Shown here: positions 4,442 through 48,422 of the stretch, one piece after another
Position numbering within the stretch: the first letter of the stretch is position 1
Layout: each line of letters begins with the position of its first letter
IMG/VR virus record: IMGVR_UViG_3300044259_000044
Coordinates: 1 to 48,767 of that record
Source: a virus
Taxonomy: Duplodnaviria > Caudoviricetes
Direction: 5' to 3' (one strand)
DNA length: 48,767 bases
The notes under the pieces: model-generated
What the model was told of the DNA's origin: nothing
The model's input: the letters and a program-made list of their open reading frames with translations, nothing else
Databases searched by the model: none
Program-made: the position numbers and the translations under genes

Positions 4442-4654
4442 ATGTTCGATCTCAAAGGCCTGTTGTTCTGGCTGCGCCAATGCGCGTTGTTGGCCCTGCT
4501 TGTGGCGTCGTGTGCGGCGTTCGGCGTGTTGGCGTTCCTGTTCATGTACGCCACTGACGACACGCTTTCCGTGATGCTGTGGCTGGCGATGCTTTGCCCG
4601 GGGTTTGGCGTCATGGAGTCGGCGCGGCTGCTGGTGAAAGGTCATCGTAAATGA
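4442..4654 (+). CDS. Small membrane protein (2 TM)
   Basis: AGGAGG SD; two hydrophobic segments. Confidence 0.7.
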   Translation: MFDLKGLLFWLRQCALLALLVASCAAFGVLAFLFMYATDDTLSVMLWLAMLCPGFGVMESARLLVKGHRK

Positions 4655-5379
4655 ATCACGTTTTACTGCAGGGCGATTGCCTGGAAATGATGCAGCTGTT
4701 GCCAGATAACAGTATCGATATGATTTTGTGCGATTTGCCGTATGGGACGACGCGCAATAAATGGGATTCAACCATTGACCTTTCCGCACTGTGGGCGGAG
4801 TACAGGCGTATCTGCAACGGCGCAATTGTCCTGACCGCGCAGACCCCTTTCGATAAGGTGTTGGGCGCGTCGAACATCGGCATGTTGCGGTATGAGTGGA
4901 TTTGGCAAAAGACGAAGGCCACCGGCCACTTGAACGCCAATCTTCAGCCGATGAAGAACCACGAAAACGTGCTGGTGTTCTACAAAGATTTTCCGACATA
5001 CAACCCGCAAGGGCTTGTACGAAAGGCCGTGCCGACCATCCGAAAGGGCGGCAACAACGGCACGAATTACGGGAAGTCGGATAAGGACGCCATCCAGGAA
5101 TTCGAGAACTACCCGCGTTCAATCCTGCATATCCCCAGCGAAGGGAAAACCGTCCACCCCACGCAAAAGCCCGTTGCCCTGATGGAATACCTGATTCGCA
5201 CCTACACAAACCCCGGCGACAACGTCTTGGACAACTGCATGGGCAGCGGGACAACCGGCGTCGCCTGCGCGCAATCCGGCCGCACGTTTGTCGGCATCGA
5301 GCGCGACCCCGACTATTTCAAAATAGCTAAAGAACGGGTAGAATCCGCGTACAAACAAGCTAAAGAACCCACAACATGA
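4651..5379 (+). CDS. DNA N6-adenine/N4-cytosine methyltransferase (beta class)
   Basis: GDCLE, CDLPYG (DPPY-like), HPTQKP, VLDNCMGSGTTG motifs. Confidence 0.92.
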   Translation: MNHVLLQGDCLEMMQLLPDNSIDMILCDLPYGTTRNKWDSTIDLSALWAEYRRICNGAIVLTAQTPFDKVLGASNIGMLRYEWIWQKTKATGHLNANLQPMKNHENVLVFYKDFPTYNPQGLVRKAVPTIRKGGNNGTNYGKSDKDAIQEFENYPRSILHIPSEGKTVHPTQKPVALMEYLIRTYTNPGDNVLDNCMGSGTTGVACAQSGRTFVGIERDPDYFKIAKERVESAYKQAKEPTT

Positions 5380-8885: not shown

Positions 8886-8919
8886 CCGATTCACCAACCC
8901 ACTCACAAAGGACAAACCG

Positions 8920-9609
8920 ATGAAACTCATTTTCGACAGCGCGACCGAATACTTCGACTTCCTGGACATGCAGATGCAAGCGTTTGGCGGCGTGCGCCAG
9001 GTGCAAGGCCCAAACGCCGAACTGCCGACCACTGTCGTCAGCAAACTGGCGGTGGAAATTGACGGCAGCGAATTCGCGGCAAGCGTGCGCAAAGAATTGG
9101 GCATCGATCAGCCTGGCGATATCGACAACGTACAGACGCCTCCGGGCGATACCCCTGAGACTACCGTGCTGACCGCCGACAAGCCCAAGCGCACCCGCAA
9201 GCCGAAAGCTCCGGACGCCGCGATGGCCGAACAGCCACCCAAGGCTTGGCCGTTCCCGCGCCAGGGAGAATGGGCTGCACAACCGCAACAGTCCGAACAG
9301 CCCGCACCCGTGACGATCCAGTCGCCGACCGCCGAGCAGAAAGCCGAGTTCGCCGCCGATGCGGCCAAGCATGCGGGCCAAATCGACCCGGCCAAGCTGG
9401 CCGAGCGTGTCGCCGCCCTGGGCGTCGTGGACCCGGCCAAGCACCTGACCGCTGCGCGCATGTTCATTGCTCGCCACCTGCTGCCGGCCTATCATCAGGT
9501 GCAGCGTGACGCCGGCCTGCCCGATGACATCATTAGCTATACCGACGAGCAGCGCACGACCCACATGGCCGCGATGGAAGTGTTCAACGAAGCGCACCCC
9601 TCCGAGTAA
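8920..9609 (+). CDS. Hypothetical protein with Pro/Gln-rich linker
   Basis: CCCACTCACAAAGGA leader/SD; codon usage like core genes. Confidence 0.8.
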   Translation: MKLIFDSATEYFDFLDMQMQAFGGVRQVQGPNAELPTTVVSKLAVEIDGSEFAASVRKELGIDQPGDIDNVQTPPGDTPETTVLTADKPKRTRKPKAPDAAMAEQPPKAWPFPRQGEWAAQPQQSEQPAPVTIQSPTAEQKAEFAADAAKHAGQIDPAKLAERVAALGVVDPAKHLTAARMFIARHLLPAYHQVQRDAGLPDDIISYTDEQRTTHMAAMEVFNEAHPSE

Positions 9610-9864: not shown

Positions 9865-9893
9865 TTGACAGTACAGTTAGAAACGATTAAGAT
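9865..9893 (+). promoter_or_regulatory. Sigma70 promoter
   Basis: TTGACA-17-TAAGAT. Confidence 0.85.
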
Positions 9894-9924
9894 TAGGGCT
9901 CACTCACTGATAGGAGCTAAATCC

Positions 9925-10495
9925 ATGTTGACAATCCCGAACAACAAACTGCGCGCTGCACTGACTCACGCCGCCGTCAAGGATATCCGCTATTACCTGC
10001 GCGGCGTCCACCTGGAGGCAACGCAAGCCGGCGATCTGCATATCATCAGCACGGACGGCACGCGGATGTTCGTCGGCGTGCTGCCCGGTGCGGCAACGGA
10101 CGCCCCGACGTTCTCGCGCCTGACCATTCCCCGTGGAAGTGCTAAAAGGCGCACCCAAGACAGGATCGGTCGTGTTGGCACCGAACGGCGACCGCTGGCA
10201 GCTTGGCGCTACCCTGTTCGACCCTTGCGAGGGCGTGTTCCCGGACTGGCGGCGCGTCGTGCCCCCGCAGACCGAGCAGGTGGCCGGACGCAACTTTGAC
10301 TACGATTTGCTGGCCGATGCGCAGACCGCGCTGCGCTTGTGGTGCGGACAAAGCAAAGCGAACGTGGCGCGTTACGATTACGAGTTTGCGTCGGTGGTAG
10401 TCGGTGAAGATTCTACCGCGTTCAGTATCGTCATGCCGTTGCGCAATGACAAATTTGAGTGGGCGCTGCCGTTCAAGCCTGGCGTCGCACGCTAA
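9925..10495 (+). pseudogene. DNA polymerase III beta-clamp-like gene split by a +1 frameshift at 10129-10132
   Basis: KDIRYYLRGV and STDG match the DnaN middle domain; the GVFPDWRRVVP...IVMPLR half lies in the +1 frame. Confidence 0.75.
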
Positions 10496-10542: not shown

Positions 10543-10571
10543 TTGACATTGCGTTTAGGTGCGATTAATAT
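10543..10571 (+). promoter_or_regulatory. Sigma70 promoter
   Basis: TTGACA-17-TAATAT. Confidence 0.85.
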
Positions 10572-10607
10572 ACATACATCGACAACGCAAACACGAAGGA
10601 GAACGAG

Positions 10608-11568: not shown

Positions 11569-13056
11569 TTAGATGACGGCGCGGGATTGGATGGTCAGGG
11601 ATTGAATGCTGCCCCCGTCTGCGTACCAAAGCTGCGCGCCCGGCGTGGTGCGGTTTTGCCGCGCTTGTGCAGGGTTTGCGGGGTCGCCGATCAGGTAATA
11701 GAACCCTTGGGTTTGCAGCGTACTGGCGATATCTTTGCCGGCCTGTTGGTTGATCTGGGCGATCTGCGCGGCCGACAACGTGACGCCGGTACGAATGATG
11801 CCAGACGCCAGGGCGGCTTGCAGTACGGGCAAACCCGAGGCGTACAGCAGTTCATAACCATCGTTGTTGTACGGCAGCGAGTTGTAGGCCAGCATGCCTT
11901 CAAACTGCGAGCGCTGCAGTTCGCGGTTCAGGTAGATCTGGTCGATGTAGGTATCCGACCACAGGTATTGACCCGACACGCCGCCGTCGTACAGGATGGA
12001 ATAGGTGTTGGCCGCGTTGGCGTACGCGCCGTAGTAGCTGTAATTATTCGACAGCAGGGCGTTGGCGGTGGCCAGGTCGGTCACCTTCGGGGTGATGCCT
12101 GCAGCGGATTGACGGAACGCGGCAGTCGCGCGGCCGTTGGTCACGTTGAAGTTCACCGAGGCAGCCCAAGCCAGCACGAGCGAAGCGTCGCCGAGGTCGC
12201 CATAGACCGGCATGGTGCCCTGATAGGGCGTCGCGAACGCGATGGCGCCGAACGACGCCGCGTTGTTGGCGACGATGCTGGCCGGCTCCATGTCATACGA
12301 CACGTACAGGAAGTCGGAGTTTTGCGTGCCGTTCCACACGGCGAACGCTTGGCGGTCAGCCAGCACGGCGGCCCATGCAGTGGTGAACAGGCCCCAATTG
12401 GTGTCGAGGGTCACCACGCGCGACATGGCCGACGACGGGGTGTCCGCATCCACGCCGTTCTGGGTTTGCGCGCCAGCGGCTGCCGACAGGCCAACGTTGG
12501 TGGCCAGCGTGCCGGTAACGGCCGAGACGGTCGCGGTGGCACCGGTGGCCGTGGTCTTCAACAGGAAGCGCCCACGGGTCGCGTCGTAGGTAATCGCGAA
12601 GTTGGGCGTGGTGAAGGCCGCGGTCATGATGCTGGCCGCATTGGCGAAGTCAGTGGCCGCCGACAGGTTGATGGTGCTGGACGTGAACTGCGCGGTCGTG
12701 GTGACAATCAGCGTGCCGGTGAAGGTCTTGAGCGTTGCCAGGGTGAGCGAGCCGAGTTGAGCGCCGAACACGGTGGCCGCTTGGGCGGTCAGCGCGTATT
12801 GCGCGAACTTCAGCACGAAGGGCAGCTGGCCGCCGTTGACAATGCCAGGGAAATACACGCTGGCCGCTTGCGCTTCAGGCGAAGATGGGCCAAACCAGGT
12901 GGACACGCTGGGCGCGTCGTAGAACTGCGCGACCTGGCCGGCCGGAATCGATGCGTCTTGCGTCAGGATCAGCCCGGACAGCGCGGAAGCGGCGCCACCG
13001 CCGCTCACGACGCCCTTGACGATCGAGACAATCTGTTTCAGGGGGATGGTGGACAT
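11569..13056 (-). CDS. Tail sheath protein (DUF3383-like)
   Basis: 495 aa; IPYNNDG-like motif and WYADGGSIQ C-terminus; synteny. Confidence 0.85.
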   Translation of the reverse strand: MSTIPLKQIVSIVKGVVSGGGAASALSGLILTQDASIPAGQVAQFYDAPSVSTWFGPSSPEAQAASVYFPGIVNGGQLPFVLKFAQYALTAQAATVFGAQLGSLTLATLKTFTGTLIVTTTAQFTSSTINLSAATDFANAASIMTAAFTTPNFAITYDATRGRFLLKTTATGATATVSAVTGTLATNVGLSAAAGAQTQNGVDADTPSSAMSRVVTLDTNWGLFTTAWAAVLADRQAFAVWNGTQNSDFLYVSYDMEPASIVANNAASFGAIAFATPYQGTMPVYGDLGDASLVLAWAASVNFNVTNGRATAAFRQSAAGITPKVTDLATANALLSNNYSYYGAYANAANTYSILYDGGVSGQYLWSDTYIDQIYLNRELQRSQFEGMLAYNSLPYNNDGYELLYASGLPVLQAALASGIIRTGVTLSAAQIAQINQQAGKDIASTLQTQGFYYLIGDPANPAQARQNRTTPGAQLWYADGGSIQSLTIQSRAVI

Positions 13057-15584: not shown

Positions 15585-15613
15585 TTGACATTACGTTTAG
15601 AAAAGCTTAAAGT
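15585..15613 (+). promoter_or_regulatory. Sigma70 promoter
   Basis: TTGACA-17-TAAAGT. Confidence 0.8.
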
Positions 15614-15642
15614 TAAGGCTCACTCACTGATAGGAGCAATGC

Positions 15643-16413: not shown

Positions 16414-17424
16414 TCAAACCCCGAGGGTTTGGCTCATGGCGAAAGGACGGTAGATCACGGCACCCCAAGTACCCGCCGACTTCTTCTGGCGGAAATAGCT
16501 GGAATAGCGTTCGACCGCGTGCGCACGCATCTTCTCGGTGAAGGCACATTCAGCGGTCACCTGGCCCTCGACCTTGCGGCACCACAGCTGCACCAGGCGG
16601 CCCGACGCGGTGTCGTATTCTGGCACTTGCACCAGTTCGAGGTTCGGCCACACTTCCTTCAGCAGCTTCATGGCCGACAGACCGAACGAGTTGACGCGGT
16701 TCAGGTCAGTGACGGCCGACGGCGGCAGGCCCAGCGCCAGGTCATCGCGCTCGGTGATCACGCCTTGCGACTGGTTGATCAGCGGCTTCCACAGGTCGGC
16801 GATGATCGCGTTGAAAATGACTTCCGGGGTGCTGGTCGCCCAGTTCTGCGAAGCGGTCGAGGCGGCCGGCAGGCGCGGGTCGTTGGTCAGGCCGTAGTTC
16901 TGCAGTCCGGTGATGCCGTAAAGATAGGAGGCGTTCAGGAACTTGGCGATACCCAGCGCGGAAGCGTAGTTCAGCTGGGAAGCCAGGTCGATGCGACCAG
17001 CGCCGGCCATCTCCAGTTCACGCTCGCCCCAACGGGTCCAGGTCTGGAAGAAGTAGGACTGGCGTTGCGGGTAGTTCACGTTGGTGCCGGACGAACCTTC
17101 GGACGAGTAGTCACCATAGGTCGCAACCTTGGTGGTCGGCTCGGCTTGGATGAACGCTGCAACCAGAGTGGTCCAGTCGCCCTTCTTGGTCTCACCCACC
17201 AGGGTAGCGGCCGCCATCGGGGCCACGATGGTCTCGATGACCTTCGGATCCACATAGGTGGTCAGGTACGACGGGATCGCGCCGTTGGTGGTGCCGATCT
17301 GGGTCGGTGCCAGACTCGCCGCGTCCATCGCGTACTGCGCGGCCGGGGTCGAGACGTTTTGCACAGTGTTCGGCAGGACCACGCCGGCGCGGTTCAACTG
17401 TGCGATGAGTTGCGAGTCACGCAT
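16414..17424 (-). CDS. Major capsid protein (DUF2184-like)
   Basis: 336 aa; strong SD; ETKKGDW, RWGERELE, YGLTNDP motifs; high-expression codon bias. Confidence 0.88.
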   Translation of the reverse strand: MRDSQLIAQLNRAGVVLPNTVQNVSTPAAQYAMDAASLAPTQIGTTNGAIPSYLTTYVDPKVIETIVAPMAAATLVGETKKGDWTTLVAAFIQAEPTTKVATYGDYSSEGSSGTNVNYPQRQSYFFQTWTRWGERELEMAGAGRIDLASQLNYASALGIAKFLNASYLYGITGLQNYGLTNDPRLPAASTASQNWATSTPEVIFNAIIADLWKPLINQSQGVITERDDLALGLPPSAVTDLNRVNSFGLSAMKLLKEVWPNLELVQVPEYDTASGRLVQLWCRKVEGQVTAECAFTEKMRAHAVERYSSYFRQKKSAGTWGAVIYRPFAMSQTLGV

Positions 17425-19407: not shown

Positions 19408-19551
19408 AGCTCGGCTGGTCAAGTTTCACAAGATATTAACGCGAGGTGTTGCAATGTGCAATCAAAACGCGCAGGGCGATAGCGAAAGTCAATTGCACGG
19501 CCAGCGCGGGCTGTGCTAAGATTTGGCTTACAAAACGTTAAGGAAAGGGCC

Positions 19552-20637
19552 ATGACAGCCTATTACAACGAGATTGACCCGTTCGCTGCGGCCTGGCTGC
19601 GCGAACTCATCAAGGCCCGCCTGATTGCAGACGGCATTGTAGACACAAGGAGCATTGAGGATGTACGACCCGACGAACTCACCGGATTCACGCAGTGCCA
19701 TTTCTTCGCCGGGATCGGCGGATGGTCTCTCGCCCTGCGCCGCGCAGGATGGCCCGACGATCGGCCAATCTGGACCGGCAGCTGCCCTTGCCAACCTTTC
19801 AGCACGGCAGGTCAAGGCGCTGGGTTTGCTGACGAGCGGCACCTTTGGCCGTCCTTCTTCCACCTCATCGAACAGTGCCGCCCTGCAGTCATCGCTGGAG
19901 AGCAAGTTGCGAGCAAGGACGCAGATCCTTGGCTCGACCTTGTACAAGATGACCTGGAAGCCATGGGCTATGCCTTCGGGGCGGTTGCGTTCCCGTCTGC
20001 GAGCGTCGGTGCTCCGCACATCCGAGACCGCACGTACTGGAGGGCCTACGCCAACGGTAGGAAATTCGATGGGCTCACAGTCGTTCGAGGGATTGAGCGC
20101 AACGGGCAAGACGCCGGACGGGCGCAAGGTGGCGGTCAGCTTGAATCATGCGGCAACGTTTGCAGGCTGGGCCACACCGGCAGCGAGGGATTGGCACAGT
20201 GCAAGTGCCAGCGAGGAATTCCTTGCGGAACGCCTGGAACAGACGCGCGGCAAGCCGCTCTCGGAACAGGCATTTGCTCTTGCGGGCTGGCCGACTCCTC
20301 AGACTCTAGCGCCAGCGAAAGCCAATTACAACGAGTCGGGCAGCAGCGATTACACCCGGAAGGTGGATGTGGCGCTTGGCATGCGCGAGACGACGAACGG
20401 CCCAAGGGCACCTCTGTCTTGGTCGAACACCCCGGCCAGACTAACGGCTTCTGGCGAGATGCTGATTGGCTCCTCTGCCGGGATGGAAAGTGGCGGCCAG
20501 TTGAACCCGGCACATTCCCGCTGGCTCATGGGGTACCCGCCCGAGTGGGACGACTGCGCGGTTATGGCAATGCAATCAATGCCGAGCAAGCGGCGCTCTT
20601 CGTCGAAGTGATGGCCGAGGCTATAGCTTCAGCCTGA
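19552..20637 (+). CDS. C5-cytosine DNA methyltransferase, alpha polypeptide
   Basis: FFAGIGG (I), GSCPCQPFS (IV), GEQV (VI), PHIRDR (VIII), LRGYGNAI (X); motif IX absent. Confidence 0.9.
19661..20611 (+). CDS. C5 methyltransferase beta polypeptide nested in the +1 frame
   Basis: AAGGAG SD 8 nt before ATG 19661; 316 open codons; [18 protein letters not shown] is motif IX-like. Confidence 0.75.
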
Positions 20638-25820: not shown

Positions 25821-26198
25821 ATGGACACGCTGACACTGACCGCTGATTGGGACTTGACCGTGGATGTCGCCGGAAATTGGGCGACCGTGGGCGACTCCAC
25901 GCCCGGCGACCTGACCGGACCCGGCATGCGATTGGCGCAAGACGTGGCTACACGCTGCCTGTCCTGGCGAGGCGAGGTGTACTACGACGCCGGGCAGGGC
26001 ATCCGGTACGAGCAGATCCTGGGCCAAGCCCCGAACATGGCGCTCGTGCAGAGCACCTACGCGACCGAGGCGTTGAAGGTGCCCGGTTGCGCGCAGGCCA
26101 TCCCGAATTTCGCGTTCACGGCTGGGCGTTCGCGCAACGTCTCGGGTGCGCTGACAGTGGCCGACTTCAGCGGCAACGCCGGTGAGGTGTTGTTTTGA
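25821..26198 (+). CDS. Baseplate wedge/sheath initiator-like protein
   Basis: DWDLTVD...AQDVA...GEVYYD..QGI.Y motifs. Confidence 0.7.
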   Translation: MDTLTLTADWDLTVDVAGNWATVGDSTPGDLTGPGMRLAQDVATRCLSWRGEVYYDAGQGIRYEQILGQAPNMALVQSTYATEALKVPGCAQAIPNFAFTAGRSRNVSGALTVADFSGNAGEVLF

Positions 26199-26497
26199 CT
26201 TGGGTCCAAATCCCCCTGTCCACCGAGCCGAACCAGACGTTCGGCGCGCAGCTGGACGGCGCGTTCGCGCAGATCACGCTGACCACGACCGATTACGGGC
26301 TTTTCGCCGATGTCATCTACGACGGCGTCCCGGTGGCGGCTGGGCGGCTCTGCCTGGACCGTACCGACATCAACCCAAATCGCTATCTTGGCCTGCCGCA
26401 GATGCTGACGTTTGTAGACCTGCAAGGCACGACCGACCCTGTAGCCAGTGGGTTTGGTACGCGTTACCTGCTGCTGTACGGCACGCCACCAACCTGA
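26195..26497 (+). CDS. Small baseplate-associated protein
   Basis: IPL...PNQ..., FVDLQG..DP...G.GTRY.L.Y motifs. Confidence 0.7.
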   Translation: MTWVQIPLSTEPNQTFGAQLDGAFAQITLTTTDYGLFADVIYDGVPVAAGRLCLDRTDINPNRYLGLPQMLTFVDLQGTTDPVASGFGTRYLLLYGTPPT

Positions 26498-26500
26498 GCC

Positions 26501-26529
26501 TTGACTTAGCTGCAACCGTCGCCGATACT
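26501..26529 (+). promoter_or_regulatory. Sigma70-like promoter of putative sRNA
   Basis: TTGACT-17-GATACT. Confidence 0.7.
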
Positions 26530-26535
26530 GGACGC

Positions 26536-26617
26536 AGCTTCCTGTTGTGAGTGGGGTCGGCGCGCGGGACGCCCGACGCTTTGCCCGGCCCGATGCAAAT
26601 CGCGCCGGGCTTCTTTT
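26536..26617 (+). ncRNA. Putative ~80-nt antisense sRNA
   Basis: Promoter, unpaired 5' seed complementary to moron RBS leaders, GTCGG/CCGAC hairpin, then terminator GCCCGGC..GCCGGGC-TTCTTTT; no SD-led ORF within it. Confidence 0.6.
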
Positions 26618-26623
26618 CGCCGC

Positions 26624-26652
26624 TTGCATTTACGTATCGTTTAGATTATAGT
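26624..26652 (+). promoter_or_regulatory. Sigma70-like promoter
   Basis: TTGCAT-17-TATAGT. Confidence 0.7.
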
Positions 26653-26682
26653 GACGTTACCACTTACGACAAGGAGCCCAAA

Positions 26683-27246
26683 ATGACCATGACACGAGAC
26701 CGAATGGCCGATCTGTTGCGCCAGGCTTCTGCCACGCCTGACGGTTACCGCATGCTGGTAGACGCTGCCGATCTGATCGCCCTAGCAGAGCGCGCCCTGC
26801 AGCCGCAAACTCCGATGGATGTGACCGTGTACACACTGGAACGCCTGCGCGGGGCCATGACACGGTTTGGTATCTCGTGCGGTGAAGGCGGTATGGAACA
26901 CTTCAGCGTCAAGTTCGAATCGCATTTGCTGGAGTTCATCCGGGCCGCAACCGATAGCCTGGACAAGTTGCGTCAAGCATATGCTGATCTGGAGGCATCC
27001 CAGCGCGCCCTGCAGCCGGAAGAGGGGCAGTCCTGCGAAATGACGCCTGAGCAGATGACGGCATATGCGCAGAGCGTTGCCGACCGTGCGGCCGAGCTAG
27101 CGCAGCCGCTTCCGGAGTTGCCGGATGCGCCGATGCTTGGCGGCGATCCTGACTACGGGGACGCTGTGTACGGATTCACTGCCAACCAGATGGGCGCTTA
27201 CGGACGGAAATGCTACGACGCTGGCATGCTGCTGGGCGTAATCTAA
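26683..27246 (+). CDS. Mosaic moron protein of unknown function
   Basis: Own promoter, AAGGAG SD; internal 17-bp direct repeat. Confidence 0.75.
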   Translation: MTMTRDRMADLLRQASATPDGYRMLVDAADLIALAERALQPQTPMDVTVYTLERLRGAMTRFGISCGEGGMEHFSVKFESHLLEFIRAATDSLDKLRQAYADLEASQRALQPEEGQSCEMTPEQMTAYAQSVADRAAELAQPLPELPDAPMLGGDPDYGDAVYGFTANQMGAYGRKCYDAGMLLGVI

Positions 27247-27821
27247 TGCTGAAGGCCCGCACGCTGCATTTGGCCGGCCGCGACACGGGCCGCCAGATCG
27301 TCTTGACCGAGTTGCCCGCGCTGCAGGCCGACCGGCACGCGCGCCGCCTGATTGCGTCGTGGGACGGCGACCCGGCCGGCGGCGTGGCCGGGCTCGCGCT
27401 GCGCCACCAAGCCGACCTGGCCGCCATGGGCGCCGACGCGCTGGAAGCGTTGGCCCCGTTCGTGCGCGCGACCCTGCCGGACGGCACACCCTTCGACCTG
27501 AACGACCTTGCCGACTGGAAAAACGTTGCGCGCATCCAGCAAGCCGCGCTGGCTCTGCACGTGGATTTCCTGCTTGGCCGCAAACCCGTGGACGTGCCGG
27601 TATCTATGCGCGCCGAGGGTATCCTGGCCGGCGAGGGCGACGCGCAAGCCACGTTCTGTTCCCCGTTCATCGCTGCGGTGCTACAATCGGATAAGGCCAG
27701 CTACGTCGAACTGGAAACCGTGCTGTCCACCGAGGACGCCTACAACCTGGCCGAACTGCTCAACATCGACGCGATCCGCCAATGGCGCGACGCGCAAATC
27801 CGCGCGAAAGGCAAACCATGA
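27246..27821 (+). CDS. Tail assembly chaperone-like protein (long form)
   Basis: GRDTG...LTELP motif; C-terminal ELETVLSTEDAYNLAE segment; upstream of tape measure. Confidence 0.6.
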   Translation: MLKARTLHLAGRDTGRQIVLTELPALQADRHARRLIASWDGDPAGGVAGLALRHQADLAAMGADALEALAPFVRATLPDGTPFDLNDLADWKNVARIQQAALALHVDFLLGRKPVDVPVSMRAEGILAGEGDAQATFCSPFIAAVLQSDKASYVELETVLSTEDAYNLAELLNIDAIRQWRDAQIRAKGKP

Positions 27822-28817: not shown

Positions 28818-30572
28818 ATGGCCGCCAATGGAACCGTAGTTGACGAACTTGTCGTGCGCTTGCGGCTCGATACGACCGAGTACAAGAAAGCCGACAAGGA
28901 CGCCGACAAGGAAATCTCCAAGACGGAGAAGAAGCGCGCCGGCGAGGACGACAAGCGCAAGAAACGCCAGGAAGGCGACATCAAACGCACCAAGGAAGCG
29001 ACGGCCGCCACCAAGGGCTGGGCGCTCGCTTTGCGCGGCCTGGGCGTCGTCGCAGGTGCGGCAGCACTCGCCGTCACGGGCTCGTTCGGTGCGATGACCA
29101 TGCTGGCCGGGTTTGAAACGAACCTGCGCCGTGCAGCCGTCTCCACGAACATGTCCAATCGCGAAATGCAGGCATGGGGCAGCACGGCCCGCCGCCTGGG
29201 CGCGGACGCACAAGCCGGGGCGCAGGCCATTGCCGACCTGGCCCGCGAGCAGCAGCAGTTCAACATCACCGGCCAAGGCCCGACCTTGCAGGCGCTTGCC
29301 CGTTTGGGCGTGAACGCCGGGCCGAACACGTCGATCGCCGACATGCTGGGGCAGGCCCAGCAGATTTATCGCCAGTCGTCGCCCGCGCAGCAGGCGCAGA
29401 TTGAAGCCGGACTGGCCGCGCAAGGCGTCTCCAACGACCTGATCGTCATGATCAAGTCCGAGACCGACGCGCGCGAGGCTTACACCAAGTCGTTCGCCGA
29501 GTCGGCCAACGAGAACCGCAAGGCGCTGGACGCAGTGACCGAAGCCCTGACCAGCATGGGCAACTCCACGATCAACATTGCCAATTCGCTGGCCACCATC
29601 GCGCAGCCAGCCGTGGAACAGTTCGCCAAGTGGGTCAGCGATTCGGCTATCAGCCTGTCGGCATGGAATGACCGTGTCGTTGCGGCAGGCAGCGGCTTGA
29701 CAGGTTTGGTAGCTGTGCTGTCGGAAGACTTCCCGCGAGCCACCGACGCCGTCACACGCGGCCTGCGCGTGCTGGGCGAAGTGGTTGACGTGGTCGCCTT
29801 CGGCTTCCAGAAGCTGCGCGACTGGTTTGCCAACTCGCCAGGTCTGCAAAAAGAGATTGAGCAGATGGGCAAGGATCTGAGCAAATTCGGCGGTTGGATC
29901 AGCGAGAAGTGGCAGGGGCTGGTCGGCAAGGCGCGCAGCGAAGGTCCGGCGCCCGTGCAGAACTGGCTGAACTCGCAAACCCCGACGGCCGGCCAATCCG
30001 CGCCGCGCGGCGTGTCCAGTGCGCAGGACATCATGACCAAGCTGGTCACCAAGTACGGGATGAACGTTGACCAGGCGGCAGCCGTTGCAGCCAACATCGG
30101 TGGCGAATCGAATTTCAACCCCGCGGCGTTCAACCCCGCAGGCGGCGGCCAAGGCGCGCGCGGCTTGACCCAGCTGCGCGGCGCACGCATCGATGCGTTT
30201 AAAAAGAAGTATGGCATCCTGCCTGACCAAGCGACCGTCGATCAGCAGCTGGAATTCATGATGACGGATCCGTATGAACGCAGTCTGGTCACCCGCTCGC
30301 TGGCCAACGGCGGCGCGACCGACATGGGCGTCGCGTTCTCCAAGATTTTCGAGGCCCACGGCAACGCTGCGGTAGACGCCGCGCGCGGCCGCACAGCGGC
30401 GCAGTACGCGCAAGCCTACAACGGCCCGGCCGCCGGTGCGCCGGTCGGTCAGGGCGCGCCGCAAATCTCGATCAATGGCCCGGTGACCGTGCAGGCCAAC
30501 AATCCGGGCGAGTTCATCGGCGGCATTCAGCGTATCGCCGGACCGCAAAATTATAATTCGGCGACCCGTTGA
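28818..30572 (+). CDS. Tape measure protein with C-terminal lysozyme-like domain
   Basis: VVDELVVRL N-terminus; Ala/Gln helical body; ANIGGESNFNPAA...GLTQ glycosylase motif. Confidence 0.85.
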   Translation: MAANGTVVDELVVRLRLDTTEYKKADKDADKEISKTEKKRAGEDDKRKKRQEGDIKRTKEATAATKGWALALRGLGVVAGAAALAVTGSFGAMTMLAGFETNLRRAAVSTNMSNREMQAWGSTARRLGADAQAGAQAIADLAREQQQFNITGQGPTLQALARLGVNAGPNTSIADMLGQAQQIYRQSSPAQQAQIEAGLAAQGVSNDLIVMIKSETDAREAYTKSFAESANENRKALDAVTEALTSMGNSTINIANSLATIAQPAVEQFAKWVSDSAISLSAWNDRVVAAGSGLTGLVAVLSEDFPRATDAVTRGLRVLGEVVDVVAFGFQKLRDWFANSPGLQKEIEQMGKDLSKFGGWISEKWQGLVGKARSEGPAPVQNWLNSQTPTAGQSAPRGVSSAQDIMTKLVTKYGMNVDQAAAVAANIGGESNFNPAAFNPAGGGQGARGLTQLRGARIDAFKKKYGILPDQATVDQQLEFMMTDPYERSLVTRSLANGGATDMGVAFSKIFEAHGNAAVDAARGRTAAQYAQAYNGPAAGAPVGQGAPQISINGPVTVQANNPGEFIGGIQRIAGPQNYNSATR

Positions 30573-30597: not shown

Positions 30598-30625
30598 CAA
30601 GGCTCACTCACACAAGGAGCGCAAC

Positions 30626-33403: not shown

Positions 33404-34540
33404 TTACTGCCAGGGCCGGCGCGCAACTGCCAGCGAATCCTTGAAGACCCAGTAGCTAAACCCGTTGGCCGCGTTGTTGGATGCCTGATTGCACGCGATG
33501 TAAAAATACGTGCCGGTCGTCGCATCCAGCAAATACACGTCGCCGTTGCCGTTGGTTTGCCCTGCGCCCAGCTGGACGACCTGGCGATAGACGTTCGCAT
33601 AGGCGTTCGTCTTCAGGATCTGCGGCGCGGTCTTGTCAAACTGCGTGCCGCCTCGATCACTGAACGCTACGATGAAGCGCGCCGGGTCGGCGCACTGCAC
33701 GATGCGAGGCTGCACTTTCGTGCCGTTGCTCAAACCCAAGCCCGTGCTGACGCCGGATGTCCACGTCGCGCCGTTGTTGGCGCTGGTGATCTGCTGCAGG
33801 TACGTGGCGGTCCCCGCGCGATACACGCACACCAGCTTGCCCGTGCCGTCCACCGTGGCCACGCAAGCTTCGGACATGGTTTGCGTCGAGACGCGGCTGT
33901 AGTTGCTGAACGTGCCATCAAAGGCAGGATTCACTTGGATGCGATAGAGCCCGGTCGGCGACTCGCACGAGAAGTAAATCCACGTGTTACCGGACGTGTC
34001 GGTGATGACGTTGGCGCAGTAAAGCAGGTTGTCAGTCACGGGCGTGCCGCCGCTGGTCACCGCAATCGGCGCACCGAAAGATCGACCGACCAGGCCGTCC
34101 GTGCTGATCTGCACCATCACCCGGATCTGGTTCGTATCGGTGCGCAGGCGCTCGGTGGTAAACATCCAGATCGAACCATTGATGACGTACTCGCAGTGTT
34201 CAAAAACTGCCCATGTGGCCGGCTGATACACGTACTGCCGGTCGCTGGCGCTGCCGTTGAACGATAAAATGTCGATCAGAAACGAACGCACGACCACGTT
34301 GCCATAGCCCGTGGTTTGCTGGTAGCTGTCCGCGCCGGTCCGGTTGTACACGTTCAGCGTGTTGGAGTCCACGCGGGTCGTGTGATAGCCGATCTCATAT
34401 TCCGGCGTCGGGCGTTGTTGCTGCACGCCAACGCCCTTCGTGTTGGTAATTTGCGCGGGGCTTGGGTACGCGTAAGGCGTGTACGTCTGCCCCGCCAGGA
34501 CTTGCGCGGCGGCCGCGTGCAGCTGAGACAGGTTTGCCAT
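33404..34540 (-). CDS. Beta-propeller/BNR (sialidase-like) protein, putative virion appendage
   Basis: Asp-box-like STDG..G and SANNGATWT; beta-rich composition. Confidence 0.6.
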   Translation of the reverse strand: MANLSQLHAAAAQVLAGQTYTPYAYPSPAQITNTKGVGVQQQRPTPEYEIGYHTTRVDSNTLNVYNRTGADSYQQTTGYGNVVVRSFLIDILSFNGSASDRQYVYQPATWAVFEHCEYVINGSIWMFTTERLRTDTNQIRVMVQISTDGLVGRSFGAPIAVTSGGTPVTDNLLYCANVITDTSGNTWIYFSCESPTGLYRIQVNPAFDGTFSNYSRVSTQTMSEACVATVDGTGKLVCVYRAGTATYLQQITSANNGATWTSGVSTGLGLSNGTKVQPRIVQCADPARFIVAFSDRGGTQFDKTAPQILKTNAYANVYRQVVQLGAGQTNGNGDVYLLDATTGTYFYIACNQASNNAANGFSYWVFKDSLAVARRPWQ

Positions 34541-34543
34541 GAA

Positions 34544-35851
34544 TTACGCTCCGTACAGATAGACGAACCGCGCGTAGTGCAGAATGATCCAGTCGTTGGC
34601 CACCGTGCCGCAGTTCAGGTTGACCGTAGCGCTGATGTTGGCCGTCGTGTCCTGGGTCAGGATGGTGGGCGCAGACGCCGACACGGCGTTCGTCTTGGTA
34701 CGGAACATCTGGCGGGTTTGCTGGCCGAGGTTCTGCAGCACGACATCAATTTCGCCCAGATTGGCGTTCGTGGTGTTGAGCGTGCCGTAGACCGTGTTGG
34801 ACGAGCCAAACCCGATCAACGCGGTCTTGGTGTTCGTGTTGGAACTGGTTTGCAGTTGCGAGCTCAATTGCACCGCCCCGTTGTTGCCCAACGCGCCGCC
34901 CGGGATGGTGAACGTCGGGCCCTGAATGGGCATCGTGTCTTGGGTCGTGTTCGTGCCTGCAGCTACGGCAAACGCGGTCGGGCTGGCCGGAATGGTCGGC
35001 GTGCCGCCGGTAGCGACGTTGTAGACGTTGTTGTAGAGGGTCACCGACGTGGTGGACGAGAAGACGCCGTAATACCAACCTGCCGGATTGCTGGCCGTGA
35101 TGCTGTTGGCCGGCATGTAGACGTAGGCGTAAGGCCATGCGGTCGTCTGGGTCGGCACAGTCACCACACCATTGGCAGCAGCCGTCCAGCTACCCGTGGC
35201 GAACACGATAAACGGAATGCCGCTCACGCCCAGCAGGGTCTGGCCGTTCGACACGGGGTTTTGCGCAGCGTAGGAATCGGCCGCCACGGCGGCGATGGTA
35301 GTGAGCGAACCCGGGCCGTTGGTCAGCCCGATATTTCCCGCAGTGACGCCGCCGGCAGGCGACACGGTAATTTTGCCCGTGCCGAGTTGCACGACCGTGC
35401 AGGAGAACGTGGCGCCCAGTCCGGTCGGATAAGTCAGGGTAATCGGCGAACTGCCCGAATAGGCCAGCGTAGCGTTGTTGTCGGTGGTGGCCAGGTTGCG
35501 CGAAGTGGTCAGCGTGCCGCGCGCCAGCAACTGCGAAAGCGCGTTCATGCCGGTGCCGGTCGTGCCGAGCCGGCAAACCGAGCCGCTCGCCCACGCCGCA
35601 GCTGTGCCTTCCACCGCGCGCTGGCTGATGGTGATCGTGTCGCCTGACACGGCGGTCACTTTGATGACTTCCCAACTGGTTTCCGATGTCGGGCCGCCAG
35701 GCTGAGTCAGGGTCAGCAGCACGTAATCGCCGTTGGCCAGTGTCGGCAGCAGCGCGCCGGTGCCGGTAGCCAGGGTGGCCGACGCCGCCACGTTGGTGAT
35801 GGAAGCCGCCAGCGTGGTCGAGAAGTTGCTGACATACAATTGTTGATTCAT
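34544..35851 (-). CDS. Fibre-like structural protein
   Basis: NFSTTLAASIT...EVIKVTAVSGDT.TI.R..EGT.A N-terminal module; Thr/Gly/Ala-rich. Confidence 0.65.
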   Translation of the reverse strand: MNQQLYVSNFSTTLAASITNVAASATLATGTGALLPTLANGDYVLLTLTQPGGPTSETSWEVIKVTAVSGDTITISQRAVEGTAAAWASGSVCRLGTTGTGMNALSQLLARGTLTTSRNLATTDNNATLAYSGSSPITLTYPTGLGATFSCTVVQLGTGKITVSPAGGVTAGNIGLTNGPGSLTTIAAVAADSYAAQNPVSNGQTLLGVSGIPFIVFATGSWTAAANGVVTVPTQTTAWPYAYVYMPANSITASNPAGWYYGVFSSTTSVTLYNNVYNVATGGTPTIPASPTAFAVAAGTNTTQDTMPIQGPTFTIPGGALGNNGAVQLSSQLQTSSNTNTKTALIGFGSSNTVYGTLNTTNANLGEIDVVLQNLGQQTRQMFRTKTNAVSASAPTILTQDTTANISATVNLNCGTVANDWIILHYARFVYLYGA

Positions 35852-35860
35852 GGCAGATCC

Positions 35861-36166
35861 TTACAAGGAAAATGCGTTGAGCGGGGCGTAGTTGATAGCC
35901 TTGGACTGCGCGACGTTCACCGATGCCGGAACGTTGACCGAGTTGCCGCTGGTGATTGCAACCGTTGCTACGACGGTCAACGTGGTGCCCGCGTCGGCCG
36001 ACTGGATGACGTAGGTGGAGGCCGTGGCGCCGGAAATGTTGGCGCCGTTGCGCTTCCACTGGTAGCCAGTCGCAGTGCCGCCCGCGACGGTCGCGGTAAG
36101 CGTGCTGCCGACGGCGTTACTGCCGGAAATACTGACGCGCGGGCCGCCGCGTTGCGGGAAACTCAC
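35861..36166 (-). CDS. Ig-like domain protein
   Basis: ISG...VGSTLT..YQWKRNG..ISGATASTYV...D.G motif. Confidence 0.75.
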   Translation of the reverse strand: MSFPQRGGPRVSISGSNAVGSTLTATVAGGTATGYQWKRNGANISGATASTYVIQSADAGTTLTVVATVAITSGNSVNVPASVNVAQSKAINYAPLNAFSL

Positions 36167-36450
36167 GACTGCACCCGATAGGTGTCGCCAGCTACGCCGG
36201 TGAACCGCACATGCGTGATCGGCGACAAGGCGGCCACGACTAGCTGCGCAGCGACAGACACGTCATAAGTCGGTGTAAAATAGTTGACGCCAAGGCCATC
36301 GGCGCAAAACTCGATTGCGCGCAAGCTGTTCGTACTGGTCAGTTGCGCGGTCAGCGGCGCTTGCCGTAACGACGCAGGAACTGGAATGACAACTTGGGTT
36401 TGCCCGACGGGAATGGCCCCCGCAGCGTAGCCCAGATCGACAAGTGCCAT
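36163..36450 (-). CDS. Small beta-rich structural-type protein
   Basis: GGGAG SD; coupled to the Ig gene. Confidence 0.65.
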   Translation of the reverse strand: MALVDLGYAAGAIPVGQTQVVIPVPASLRQAPLTAQLTSTNSLRAIEFCADGLGVNYFTPTYDVSVAAQLVVAALSPITHVRFTGVAGDTYRVQS

Positions 36451-42093: not shown

Positions 42094-42456
42094 TCAATTC
42101 TCCTCGATATGTACCACCGCAAACCCTGCGCCAGCCGGGTCCGGTTCGCAGCGGATGATATACAACTCGTCAATCTGCGAATCGTCCAACCAGACCCGCT
42201 GTTTGGTTAGGAAGTCGCAGAGTATCTTCTCACGGTTCGCGCAGTCCCAAGCCTTGTTGCGCAGCGCACGCGGCGCGTGCAACGTGATCGTGGCGCGCAG
42301 CCGCCCGGTCAGGGGCGGCGGCACGCGGCCGGGCGGCATCGCATTAGCTGCCGATCTCAGCCACGCCCTGGCCGCCGCCGACAAGACGATCCGGCCGCCG
42401 ACGGCGCGCCAGATGCGATTGACGGACGGCGGGAAGGGTAGGCGGTAAGTCGTCAC
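42094..42456 (-). CDS. rusA: RusA-like Holliday junction resolvase
   Basis: LPFPPSVN, D..N..K...D, DDSQID motifs; GTG start. Confidence 0.85.
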   Translation of the reverse strand: MTTYRLPFPPSVNRIWRAVGGRIVLSAAARAWLRSAANAMPPGRVPPPLTGRLRATITLHAPRALRNKAWDCANREKILCDFLTKQRVWLDDSQIDELYIIRCEPDPAGAGFAVVHIEEN

Positions 42457-44846: not shown

Positions 44847-45245
44847 TCAGCCTTTCGTCTTTTTGAGTTCTTCGAGTTCGCGCAGATAGCGTTCGGCGGC
44901 TTTGCGGTGAAACTCGATTGCACCATTGGCCGCAATCAGATCCTGTCGCAAACCGGCAATTTGCAAACTCAGTGCGACGTTGTCTTTGAGTGCCTTTTGG
45001 AACGCAAGAGGGTCGGCAGCCTGCGGTCGTGGGGTCGCGTTGCGCTGCCACTTCGTGTGCTGGTTAGCGGGCAAGAGAACTCCGCGCGCGGCAAGAACGG
45101 CCCGCAGCTTTTCAAACATGCGAAACGACAAACCCACTTTGCCTTTCTCAATCTGCGACAAATAGGGCTGCGCAATGCCCAATTCATCGGCCAGCTTTTG
45201 TTGGGTCATGCCCAACGATTTGCGAATTTCGATCAAATTATCCAT
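44847..45245 (-). CDS. XRE/Cro-family HTH regulator with coiled-coil C-terminus
   Basis: IRKSLGMTQQKLADELGIAQPYLSQIEKG. Confidence 0.88.
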   Translation of the reverse strand: MDNLIEIRKSLGMTQQKLADELGIAQPYLSQIEKGKVGLSFRMFEKLRAVLAARGVLLPANQHTKWQRNATPRPQAADPLAFQKALKDNVALSLQIAGLRQDLIAANGAIEFHRKAAERYLRELEELKKTKG

Positions 45246-45929: not shown

Positions 45930-48422
45930 ATGCAATCCGACATTACGTTCACACAGATCACGGCAAAGAACTGCGATCTGACCAAGACCTTCACGCGCAA
46001 CGCAAACGGGCAGATCGAAAGCACGGCGATTGCTCACATGACCGAAGGGTCCGCGCGGGTTTGCTCTATCCCGAACATCAGTGAACTAGGTGCAGCGCTC
46101 GACATGCTGCAGCCCAACCAGGCGATCACCTGCGGCATTCCGACCAAAGGCGACACGCCGCTGACCACGCGTGCAGGCGTAGACTTCCGGCCCGACGCCG
46201 TGGCCCGCACAAACGAATCGTTCATGTTTCCCTACGGCCCGGCGCTGTACCCGATCGACGTGGACGTGGACGGCGACGACTTCCGCAGCGTGGACGACGT
46301 GCTGGACGCCCTGGAAGCGTGCTCGCCGTGGCTGCGCCAGGTCGTGCGTGTGGCGCGCCCTTCGTCGTCGTCCTACGTGGCCGACCGTGGCCTGCGCGGC
46401 GTGCATGTGTTTGTGTCTGTCACGCGCGGCGTCGACATCCCTGCGCTGGCCAAACGCATGCAGGTTGAGCAATGGGCGGCCGGGCGCGGGTACATCCGCA
46501 TCAGCAAGTCCGGCGCACTGCTGGTGCGCCAGCTGTCCGACGCCATGGTGTACCAGCCGTCGCGCCTGATGTTCGAAGCCAAACCCGTCATGCAGGGCGA
46601 CTTGGTGCGCGCCATCCCCGAAGAGGCCCGATTCATCGAACGTGCGCCGCAGGTCGTCGGCGCGCCGGCCAAGTTCCGCACCGCCGAAGGGCTGCTGGAC
46701 GTGCAGGCGCTGCCCGCCATGCGTGAACTGGACGAACGGCGGTTCACGACGGCCGTGCGCAATGCCAAGAACGCACGCCGCCGCGAAGCCAAGACGGTGG
46801 CCATCGACTACCAGCGCCAGAACGCCATTGCGTCGGGGCTGGATCCGGAAGTCGGCGAGCGCTTGGGTTTGATGGCGACCCGTGCCTTGGGCGACAAGGC
46901 GCTGCCGCGCAGCTGGACGCTGCAAGTCGTCGGCGTCGAGAAGCCCGTGACGGTCGGTGAGGTGCTAGCCCACCTGGACGAAGCGCTGGGCCGGCACTGC
47001 GCCGATCCGTTCGACACCTATCGCCCGGACCTGTCGGACAAGCACATGCACAAGGCCGAGATTGTCCGCATGGGCGACAAGGTTGGCATCTGGTCGCACA
47101 AGATGCAGGAGTTCTTCGCCTTCACCGACGCTGACGCCGCCGACCTGACCAGTCCCCTCGACCTGGCCGCAGAAAAGCTGTGTGGGCTGGTCGAGTATCC
47201 GGAACCGGCCGGCAAGAAAGCCGCGCCGTTCGTGAACGTCATGCACGGCACCGAACTTCTGCTGCGCGAAATCGACTGCTTGCCCACCTTCAACGTCTGC
47301 ACGTCGTCCGTGCAAGCCGAGGACGTACCGCCGACCGGTCGGCTGATCGAGGCACTGTCGCGCATCGGCTGCGCGAACGTCACGCCTTCGACCGTTGAAA
47401 AGGCCGTCACCGCCCTGGCCGAAATGCGCCGCGTTGATCCGTGGAAGGATGCCATCCTTCGCTTACCCGTCTGGGACGGCCAGAAACGGCTCCAGAGCGT
47501 TTTTCAGGACGTGTTTGATGCGGAACCCTCACCCATCCTCGAAAACGTCTCCTGCGCGTTTTTTGCGGGTTTGGTGATGCGTCAACTGAAACCCGGTATT
47601 TCCGCGCCGGTCATCCCGGTGTTGATCGGGCGGCAACATACCAGCAAAAGCCGATTTGCCATCGAGATCGCGCGCGGACTGGGCGTGCCGTTGCCGTCCT
47701 CGATCGCCTTCGATGACGACCGCAAAATGTCCATGAAGGCGGCCAGGTCGATGATCTGCGAACTAGCCGAAATGTCCGGCCTGTCCAAACGCGACGCCGA
47801 CGACATCAAGCGCTGGGTGACCGACGACAACGACGTCTACCGCAAACCCTACGAAAAGGAAGAAACCGAGCATCCGCGCCGTTTCATGCCCATCGGCACG
47901 GCCAACAAGTTCGAACTGTACCGCGACGAGACCGGCGGCCGCCGCTTCGGCCCGGTCTTCGTGCGCAAGGCCATGGACCCGAACTGGATGACCGAACTGC
48001 CGCAGATCCTGGCCGAAGCCAAGAAGCGTTTTTGCGAGAATGAGTCCGACTATTTCGCGCTGGTCACCCGCACCGCCGACGAAGTGTTGGAGTACAGCAA
48101 GACCGCGATGGCCAACGGGGAAGGGATGCCAGTTTCGGACTTGGACGACCTGCTGCCCAACATCCTGACCAATGCGCTCGCACGTGAAGGCAAAGGGCGC
48201 GTGCAGGCATCCACCATCCGCATCGGCCTGGATCAGCTGGTCAGCGGCCGGCGCTTCGCCGCGCAGGACATCGCGCGCTGGCTGACCGCACGCGGCTGGA
48301 CCGCTGGCAAGGACGGGCGCGGCATGCGTTACTACGAAGCGCCGCAAAGTTTCCTTGACATTTCGGATAATGTCGTTACACTTCCGATTGACAACCCATT
48401 TACGAAAGGAGCAGTAGCATGA
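45930..48422 (+). CDS. Primase-helicase with VapE/VirE-type P-loop domain
   Basis: IDVD and HVF N-terminal primase-like motifs; WDG..RL, LIGRQHTSKS, ELAEM, YRKPY, DETGGRRF. Confidence 0.88.
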   Translation: MQSDITFTQITAKNCDLTKTFTRNANGQIESTAIAHMTEGSARVCSIPNISELGAALDMLQPNQAITCGIPTKGDTPLTTRAGVDFRPDAVARTNESFMFPYGPALYPIDVDVDGDDFRSVDDVLDALEACSPWLRQVVRVARPSSSSYVADRGLRGVHVFVSVTRGVDIPALAKRMQVEQWAAGRGYIRISKSGALLVRQLSDAMVYQPSRLMFEAKPVMQGDLVRAIPEEARFIERAPQVVGAPAKFRTAEGLLDVQALPAMRELDERRFTTAVRNAKNARRREAKTVAIDYQRQNAIASGLDPEVGERLGLMATRALGDKALPRSWTLQVVGVEKPVTVGEVLAHLDEALGRHCADPFDTYRPDLSDKHMHKAEIVRMGDKVGIWSHKMQEFFAFTDADAADLTSPLDLAAEKLCGLVEYPEPAGKKAAPFVNVMHGTELLLREIDCLPTFNVCTSSVQAEDVPPTGRLIEALSRIGCANVTPSTVEKAVTALAEMRRVDPWKDAILRLPVWDGQKRLQSVFQDVFDAEPSPILENVSCAFFAGLVMRQLKPGISAPVIPVLIGRQHTSKSRFAIEIARGLGVPLPSSIAFDDDRKMSMKAARSMICELAEMSGLSKRDADDIKRWVTDDNDVYRKPYEKEETEHPRRFMPIGTANKFELYRDETGGRRFGPVFVRKAMDPNWMTELPQILAEAKKRFCENESDYFALVTRTADEVLEYSKTAMANGEGMPVSDLDDLLPNILTNALAREGKGRVQASTIRIGLDQLVSGRRFAAQDIARWLTARGWTAGKDGRGMRYYEAPQSFLDISDNVVTLPIDNPFTKGAVA

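Follow-up and report, generated by a model that had tools for sequence, protein, structure and literature searches.

The CI RNA of phage P4 is comparable to the c4 RNA of phages P1 and P7. The latter is described as a short phage RNA that pairs near the ribosome binding site and blocks the translation of a phage mRNA, its specificity residing in the phage-specific pairing (PMC12197685). The predicted RNA analyzed here, encoded in a 48,767-base virus record that we call, at its full length, the window, resembles c4 in that it would be a short phage RNA pairing near the ribosome binding site in a phage-specific manner. However, c4 controls one antirepressor mRNA in temperate-phage immunity and lies upstream in the antirepressor operon under its control, whereas the window unit lies among tail genes, faces many scattered early leaders, and belongs to a virus in which a scan of 69 ORFs named neither an integrase nor an antirepressor. 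GcvB, a second point of comparison, is chromosomal, has amino-acid transport targets, and carries a conserved seed. Its silencing of many mRNAs works through ACA-type enhancer motifs that lie immediately upstream of the Shine-Dalgarno (SD) sequence (PMC3879156). The window RNA shares with GcvB a G/U-rich seed directed at C/A-rich leaders, but its predicted targets are the phage's own genes, and its seed is not conserved in the clade. Neither the C4 antisense RNA model nor the GcvB model of Rfam matched; nothing in Rfam reached the gathering score in the window, where two chance-level matches (E 0.35-0.59) fell far under the threshold.

The job that we propose for this RNA is the one done in phage T4 by RegB, whose cleavage at GGAG within the translation initiation regions of early mRNAs inactivates these messages, and by RegA, which competes with ribosomes at about 30 mRNAs (PMC3014915). 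RegB and RegA are proteins, whereas here an RNA would act, by base pairing through a seed that can be reprogrammed. Phage-encoded Hfq-binding small RNAs (sRNAs) acting in lytic growth include PreS of lambda, which targets the host gene dnaN, and VpdS of VP882, which competes for Hfq; in the part of PMC12197685 that was available, neither is described as a match to a leader that its phage's early genes have in common. We found no published description of such an RNA, or of this stretch, in the clade, the open-access literature covered including the available parts of PMC10914365, PMC12197685, and PMC3014915.

Start-associated sequences (SAS) of Cluster K mycobacteriophages are overconserved ribosome-binding-site motifs ahead of nonstructural genes, and a single reversed copy, untied to a gene start, occurs in four K1 phages (PMC3203893). 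They were described in 2011, and in 2024 their role was still called not known (PMC11373665). We found that the reversed SAS forms the loop of a long hairpin in an ORF-free gap of Adephagia (58682; L163:28660-28720; z -5.95) and a hairpin loop in Anaya (59870; L162:29848-29908; z -2.56). The gap between genes 92 and 93 of Adephagia is where late transcription starts (PMC11373665). Within one mismatch, the reversed SAS occurs in 3 of the 9 Cluster K stretches examined, being kept in LilPharaoh, with a near match in Hammy; it is absent from the examined stretches of Yuna, Hurricane, Pixie, TM4, and Omnicron. The window resembles Anaya and Adephagia in combining many sense copies of a motif with one reversed copy, its CACTCAC word occurring four times in sense and once reversed. 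However, the phages and their motif are unrelated to the window's, and the reversed SAS sits in a hairpin loop at a late-transcription gap, whereas in the window the reversed copy stands at the 5′ terminus of a short unit closed by a terminator. The shared leader of the window is not the 13-bp SAS consensus but a different, looser motif. PMC4351075 and PMC7302621 describe other repeats in their available parts, in which a reversed start-associated copy was not found.

Anatomy and surroundings of the predicted unit

The genes of the window and their neighbors place it among the Bcep781/OP2-like phages (Burkholderia, Ralstonia, and Xanthomonas); Bcep781 itself is a virulent phage. An earlier note on this DNA had pointed to a promoter, about 80 nt without an SD-led ORF, and a terminator, all of which we recovered. 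The unit starts 3 bp past the stop codon of the Bcep781 gp50 homolog, between tail genes, with the virion genes homologous to gp51 and gp50 upstream (25821..26497, plus strand) and a moron cassette and the gp47 homolog, used as the downstream anchor (27246..27821, plus strand), ahead. Its sigma70-type promoter, TTGACT-17-GATACT, occupies 26501..26529 on the plus strand and is followed by a predicted sRNA of 83 nt without an SD-led ORF (26536..26618, plus strand), the start being inferred from the -10 box. The RNA opens with a seed (26537..26556), made up of an anti-SD and then a G/U-rich tract complementary to C/A-rich early leaders, continues with a predicted internal hairpin (26556..26577), and ends in a predicted intrinsic terminator (26583..26618) with a hairpin of -20.4 kcal/mol and a U tract, the tail being TTCTTTTC; this terminator is missing from the output of a simple terminator scan. 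As read from the sequence, the unit thus has what a stand-alone gene for a trans-acting sRNA has, namely, its own promoter, no ORF, and an intrinsic terminator. The structure of the whole sRNA is not unusual (z -1.47). Its first 25 nt fold at -4.5 kcal/mol, and many seed bases have a low unpaired probability in a weak self-pairing.

The word CACTCAC has five copies in the window. Four lie on the plus strand in leaders (8900, 9901, 15621, and 30605) and the fifth on the minus strand, at 26553, within the sRNA seed and with no start codon behind it, which agrees with the earlier view that this copy is not another leader. A reversed early leader serving its own gene was rejected since no start follows on the minus strand; the minus-strand ORF at 26057-26629 (190 aa) has no Pfam match. 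A blastn search with the region returned the gp50 gene of Burkholderia phages only and no match to the sRNA, and an exact search with 15 nt of the seed gave 49 raw matches in viral contigs.

The baseplate genes of the window at 25821 (gp51) and 36706 and their orthologs start 5 to 7 nt past a -10-like hexamer, and no SD was seen in 33 ortholog starts of the two genes in 19 genomes. Given this hexamer and the lack of an SD, the two genes look leaderless. These late leaderless promoters match the -35 box poorly, at 3.1 of 6 positions on average, compared with 5.2 of 6 for the sRNA promoters of 19 genomes; the sRNA promoter is early-like in its -35 box and discriminator and late-like in its spacer GC content. 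In the sRNA promoters of KPhi1 and of three other genomes (G025, G026, and G038), an inverted TGTCA immediately ahead of a CA-starting -10 box echoes the -35 box and is possibly an operator or an extended -10.

The moron ORF that adjoins the sRNA (26683..27246, plus strand; 187 aa; no PHROG or Pfam family) is a recent mosaic, since its part at 26776-27025 recurs with one difference and unlike flanks in an 18.6-kb contig of run X5, and since the 5′ end of the moron differs in a close relative from run X3. A promoter-like site on the minus strand at 26645-26672 overlaps the moron promoter; it aims back across the sRNA and could yield an antisense transcript. In most phages, no SD is evident ahead of the gp47 homolog, which starts just past the terminator U tract or overlaps a moron stop codon. 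A gp51 transcript would stop at the sRNA terminator, beyond which the gp47 homolog and the tape-measure operon lie.

Elsewhere in the window, two overlapping ORFs in different frames at 9925-10495 match the N- and C-terminal parts of phrog_3007, as a frameshifted or split gene would, and a separate RusA-family ORF lies at 42094-42339. A minus-strand block at 33404-36450 with tail-fibre-like and Hoc/Ig-like matches is inverted within the plus-strand tail operon. There are two DNA methyltransferase genes, at 19513-20637 and 4651-5379, the C5-cytosine one lying antisense amid head genes. An HTH_3 regulator gene (44847-45245, minus strand), which has an apparently very short leader and is divergent from the primase gene, is a candidate transcription regulator.

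Predicted pairing with leaders in the window

Promoters were searched for with a pattern blind to the sRNA (sigma70-type promoters with short leaders), and pairing was scored by our own IntaRNA-like script as hybrid energy plus opening costs. The promoters found precede genes 7660, 8625, 9925, 10608, 15643, 26683, 30626, 48419, and 43584. The best predicted target is the adjacent moron, 26683, whose early-type promoter (TTGCAT-17-TATAGT) and leader occupy 26624..26682, with pairing at about 26660-26677 (-21.1 kcal/mol). Next come, likewise on the plus strand, the leaders of gene 48419, which follows the primase gene (48395..48411; promoter at 48355; -16.8 kcal/mol), of the 55-aa gene 30626 (30603..30619; promoter at 30569; -16.0 kcal/mol), of gene 9925 (9899..9916; promoter at 9865; -14.9 kcal/mol), and of the gp65-like gene at 8920, which is not promoter-proximal (8898..8912; -13.2 kcal/mol). 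Gene 10608, whose early promoter and leader lie at 10543..10607 on the plus strand, is a weaker predicted target (-12.0 kcal/mol). The leader of the pentapeptide-repeat gene 15643 (15619..15636, plus strand; promoter at 15585) reaches -16.4 kcal/mol when cut at its predicted +1 and 0 when 35 upstream bases are folded in. It dropped out of the promoter-proximal class in the covariation, early-versus-late, and shuffle tests, in which the signal of the window is understated for this reason. Genes 8625 and 43584 pair poorly, as does 7660, at just -6.6 kcal/mol. Among the targets that had been named earlier, 26683, 30626, 9925, and 8920 are therefore retained and 15643 depends on the cut, whereas 7660 is unconvincing. 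Genes 48419 and 10608 probably belong to the target set as well, along with genes of the replication arm, among them the gp65-like gene at 8920.

On the eight promoter-proximal leaders, the seed pairs at a mean of -11.7, compared with -3.7 for shuffled seeds and -6.4 for shuffles that keep the anti-SD; none of 300 shuffles was as good as the real seed, and 2 of 300 were when the anti-SD was kept. The comparison against shuffled seeds that the earlier note had suggested thus came out in favor of the pairing. By this computation, a short and imperfect seed pairs above chance with several unlinked mRNAs at their ribosome binding sites. When the whole genome of the window was scanned with the seed, the named early leaders made up 6 of the 15 best-scoring non-self sites. 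Some late starts of the window are also predicted to pair, namely, those of the tail-sheath gene at 13056 (-18.1) and the major-capsid gene at 17424 (-12.9).

Conservation of the unit and seed-leader covariation

Relatives were taken both from contigs of viral and metagenomic origin and from phages in GenBank, and their gp50-gp47 intervals were searched for a promoter, an ORF-free RNA, and a terminator with a detector whose thresholds were loosened after the loci had been seen. The detector fired at 48 of 56 distinct loci and in none of 101 random 900-base windows, which were mostly coding. The unit is present in the cultured phages Bcep781, Bcep1, PQ43W, KPhi1, Simangalove, RS-CA1, PhiXhv-2, and NEB7. 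In five of the eight loci missed by the detector, the unit can be recognized by eye, its -35 box being weak or its hairpin collapsed, and the OP2 locus has no U tract. No unit was found at the gp50-gp47 site of locus L186 or of the complete genome G018 (46,977 bases), nor elsewhere in G018, whose early leaders have, by eye, no long word in common. Run genome-wide on 16 genomes, the detector found the unit in 13, as the sole match in 5; the other matches were mostly weak hairpins.

The sRNA sequences of different lineages are too divergent to be aligned or modeled as one family. In a consensus fold of five related RNAs, 5 of 32 pairs changed on both sides, with no net covariation bonus. A contig of run X3, about 92% identical to the window, has the CC of the anti-SD changed to TT and four added T, and none of the 10 differences listed out of 17 lies between 26543 and the RNA end.

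To compare seeds with leaders across the clade, the RNAs of 19 genomes were each crossed with the start regions of all 19, row and column effects were removed, and a permutation test was applied. Start regions came from our own gene caller, which matched most annotated Bcep781 starts. Near-duplicates, short fragments, and G018 were left out of the matrix, as was the start of gp47, given its overlap with the unit. Pairing with the leaders of the own phage was better by -2.17 kcal/mol for promoter-proximal leaders (16 of 19 genomes, permutation P = 1e-5), compared with -1.17 for replication-arm genes, -0.21 for other genes, and -0.18 kcal/mol for late genes (P = 0.08). The replication set was chosen after the pairing results had been seen, the promoter-proximal set not. 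When each RNA type was represented by a single genome and the window was excluded, the promoter-proximal residual was -2.33 (13 of 14; P = 3e-5) and the late one -0.15 (P = 0.15); overall, the late-gene residuals ranged from -0.15 to -0.21 (P = 0.07 to 0.15). Seed and targets thus change together, weakly or not at all in G007, PQ43W, and Simangalove, in which the own-phage preference was absent for the early-plus-replication set. The search for the sRNA and for seed/leader covariation in relatives that had been called for therefore gave a positive answer on both counts. The anatomy of the unit and its gp50-gp47 position recur across the clade, and seed and leaders match lineage by lineage. The earlier proposal that one sRNA pairs with dispersed early and moron leaders is supported by a syntenic unit whose seed tracks the early leaders of its own phage and hardly the late ones.

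Three of 34 ortholog families stood out, namely, the gp65-like (P = 0.0018), helicase (P = 0.0015), and primase (P = 0.018) families, which are borderline after correction; three late families were also nominally significant among the 34. For the gp65-like leaders (residual -3.98, 13 genomes), orthologous leaders shift with the seed, and this tracking can be followed by eye in the window, G001, G002, G008, G007, and PQ43W. In four related Xanthomonas-phage-like genomes, the sRNA holds GTCTGC, and GCAGAC, a word picked after the pairing results had been seen, precedes 26 of 180 non-late starts and none of 96 late starts; across the other 15 genomes, the word stands before 4 of 594 non-late starts, and before none in OP2 and NEB7 (KPhi1's subfamily). 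This match probably reflects one evolutionary event. The CACTCAC word behaves less cleanly, being found in four, one, and no leaders of the three phages whose RNA holds its complement and in two leaders each of G014 and G019, whose RNA is without it.

Pairing was better for early than for late leaders (P < 0.05) within only 10 of the 19 genomes, and within 1 of the 8 cultured phages, in a test whose late set still contained gp47 and which also favors early leaders because these were cut at +1. The earlier argument that most leader changes are C>U or A>G and so keep the pairing carries little once controlled, since 32 to 34% of the differences are of the wobble type in own pairs, compared with 28% in foreign pairs (P = 0.04 to 0.14, identity-only aligner).

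Competing explanations and the proposed role

We regard the unit as real and conserved, and as a phage sRNA gene that is probably functional, with a seed that coevolves with early leaders. We consider it probable, on balance, that this clade-wide unit gives rise, through the host sigma70 polymerase, to an sRNA of about 80 nt that likely pairs in trans with the C/A-rich leaders and SD sequences of early genes, morons, and some replication genes of the same phage and likely blocks their translation.

Seeds and leaders diverge fast and in step while the flanking proteins are 80 to 90% identical. Such divergence could also be that of exclusion groups, if the main job of the sRNA lay between phages and the built-up RNA silenced the early genes of a later-arriving relative; in P1 and P7, heteroimmunity is set by the c4 RNA, which pairs close to a ribosome binding site (PMC12197685). 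However, with no integrase among the 69 ORFs scanned, there is no evident lysogen needing protection, and we regard exclusion as an unlikely main job, although the two explanations are compatible and not mutually exclusive.

Nearly all lineages have a G/U-rich sRNA, the mean pairing of early leaders with foreign RNAs is still -4.3, and ACA motifs are general translation enhancers (PMC3879156). All of this would suit an RNA that mainly hits host mRNAs, as a GcvB mimic or an anti-SD sponge, with the match to the phage merely reflecting strong leaders that are C/A-rich and carry an SD. Such a role leaves the own-phage preference and the GCAGAC/GTCTGC match unexplained, and it appears to us marginally less likely than exclusion.

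For three of the genes with sigma70-type promoters, the shared motif starts at the predicted +1, and four motif copies lie directly at predicted transcription starts; an HTH gene is present, and the wobble enrichment is weak. The motif may be read as a DNA site at the +1 of early promoters for a phage regulator (e.g., the HTH_3 protein encoded at 44847-45245), inverted at the promoter of the unit, with the RNA complementarity as a by-product. We find this improbable, as the copy at 8920 is not promoter-proximal, the spacing inside the motif varies, and the inverted copy includes the SD, lies within an ORF-free terminated unit, and matches the SD-to-start spacer in the Xanthomonas-phage group. 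The distance between the C/A motif and the SD also differs among targets, which would be easier to reconcile with bulges in an RNA duplex than with a DNA site bound by a protein.

The stretch might, on the other hand, be a mere 3′ end or terminator of the gp51-gp50 transcript or a gp47 attenuator, its seed being a remnant of an inverted leader cassette without any function in trans. The U tract lies 30 nt or less from the gp47 start in about half of the loci, early cassettes have evidently been duplicated (9925 and 15643 have a leader in common), and two loci are without the unit. However, the unit stands ahead of or behind the moron cassette depending on the locus, so that the cassette separates it from gp47 in the other loci and from gp50 in Bcep781 and PQ43W. 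Its own promoter is kept although the spacer varies, and a remnant would not track leaders over more than a dozen lineages, which makes this explanation quite improbable. Least probable of all is that the sRNA pairs with the leaders but protects or activates them, e.g., by shielding mRNA 5′ ends. Pairing that begins at the predicted +1 of several mRNAs, and best duplexes upstream of the SD in Simangalove and RS-CA1, would speak for this, whereas the duplex covers the SD or reaches the start codon in the window and several other lineages.

Returning to repression of the phage's own early leaders, the sequence makes it likely that the sRNA turns the early genes of the virus down together; that the RNA is transcribed as a discrete species, that it represses, and when it does so are what we infer. 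The early mRNAs would begin at the first base of the shared motif, and the duplex would then span nearly the whole 5′ untranslated region of 20 to 25 nt. Because the -35 box of the sRNA is of the early type, the RNA and its targets would be made together. A stable sRNA would accumulate, topped up late by read-through from gp51-gp50, and may turn early expression into a pulse, leaving ribosomes to the late genes, a number of which appear to be leaderless and would be beyond its reach. A gene newly inserted downstream of a promoter-leader cassette that is already in place would come under the same control. New genes can do so because one promoter and leader precede unrelated ORFs in locus L002 and in loci L004-L006 and because 9925 and 15643 share a leader; the suggestion that a moron is recruited by taking on the leader is in keeping with the sequence.

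If this is so, a core and unannotated RNA gene that coevolves with early leaders would be a protein-free answer to early shut-off in phages that depend on the host polymerase, and it would give a rule for how morons plug into a phage program. The idea can be tested, as the clade has cultured phages. More tentatively, and with somewhat less than even confidence, we suggest that tailed phages may hold a widespread and undescribed class of self-targeting "early-off" RNAs, in which one reprogrammable antisense RNA silences dispersed early genes as an RNA counterpart of T4 RegB/RegA. This class would be core in the Bcep781/OP2 clade, and the same logic may explain the SAS of Cluster K1 through an anti-SAS loop in a late leader. 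The position of the reversed SAS in a hairpin loop where the late transcription of Adephagia starts makes the old question of the SAS role testable.
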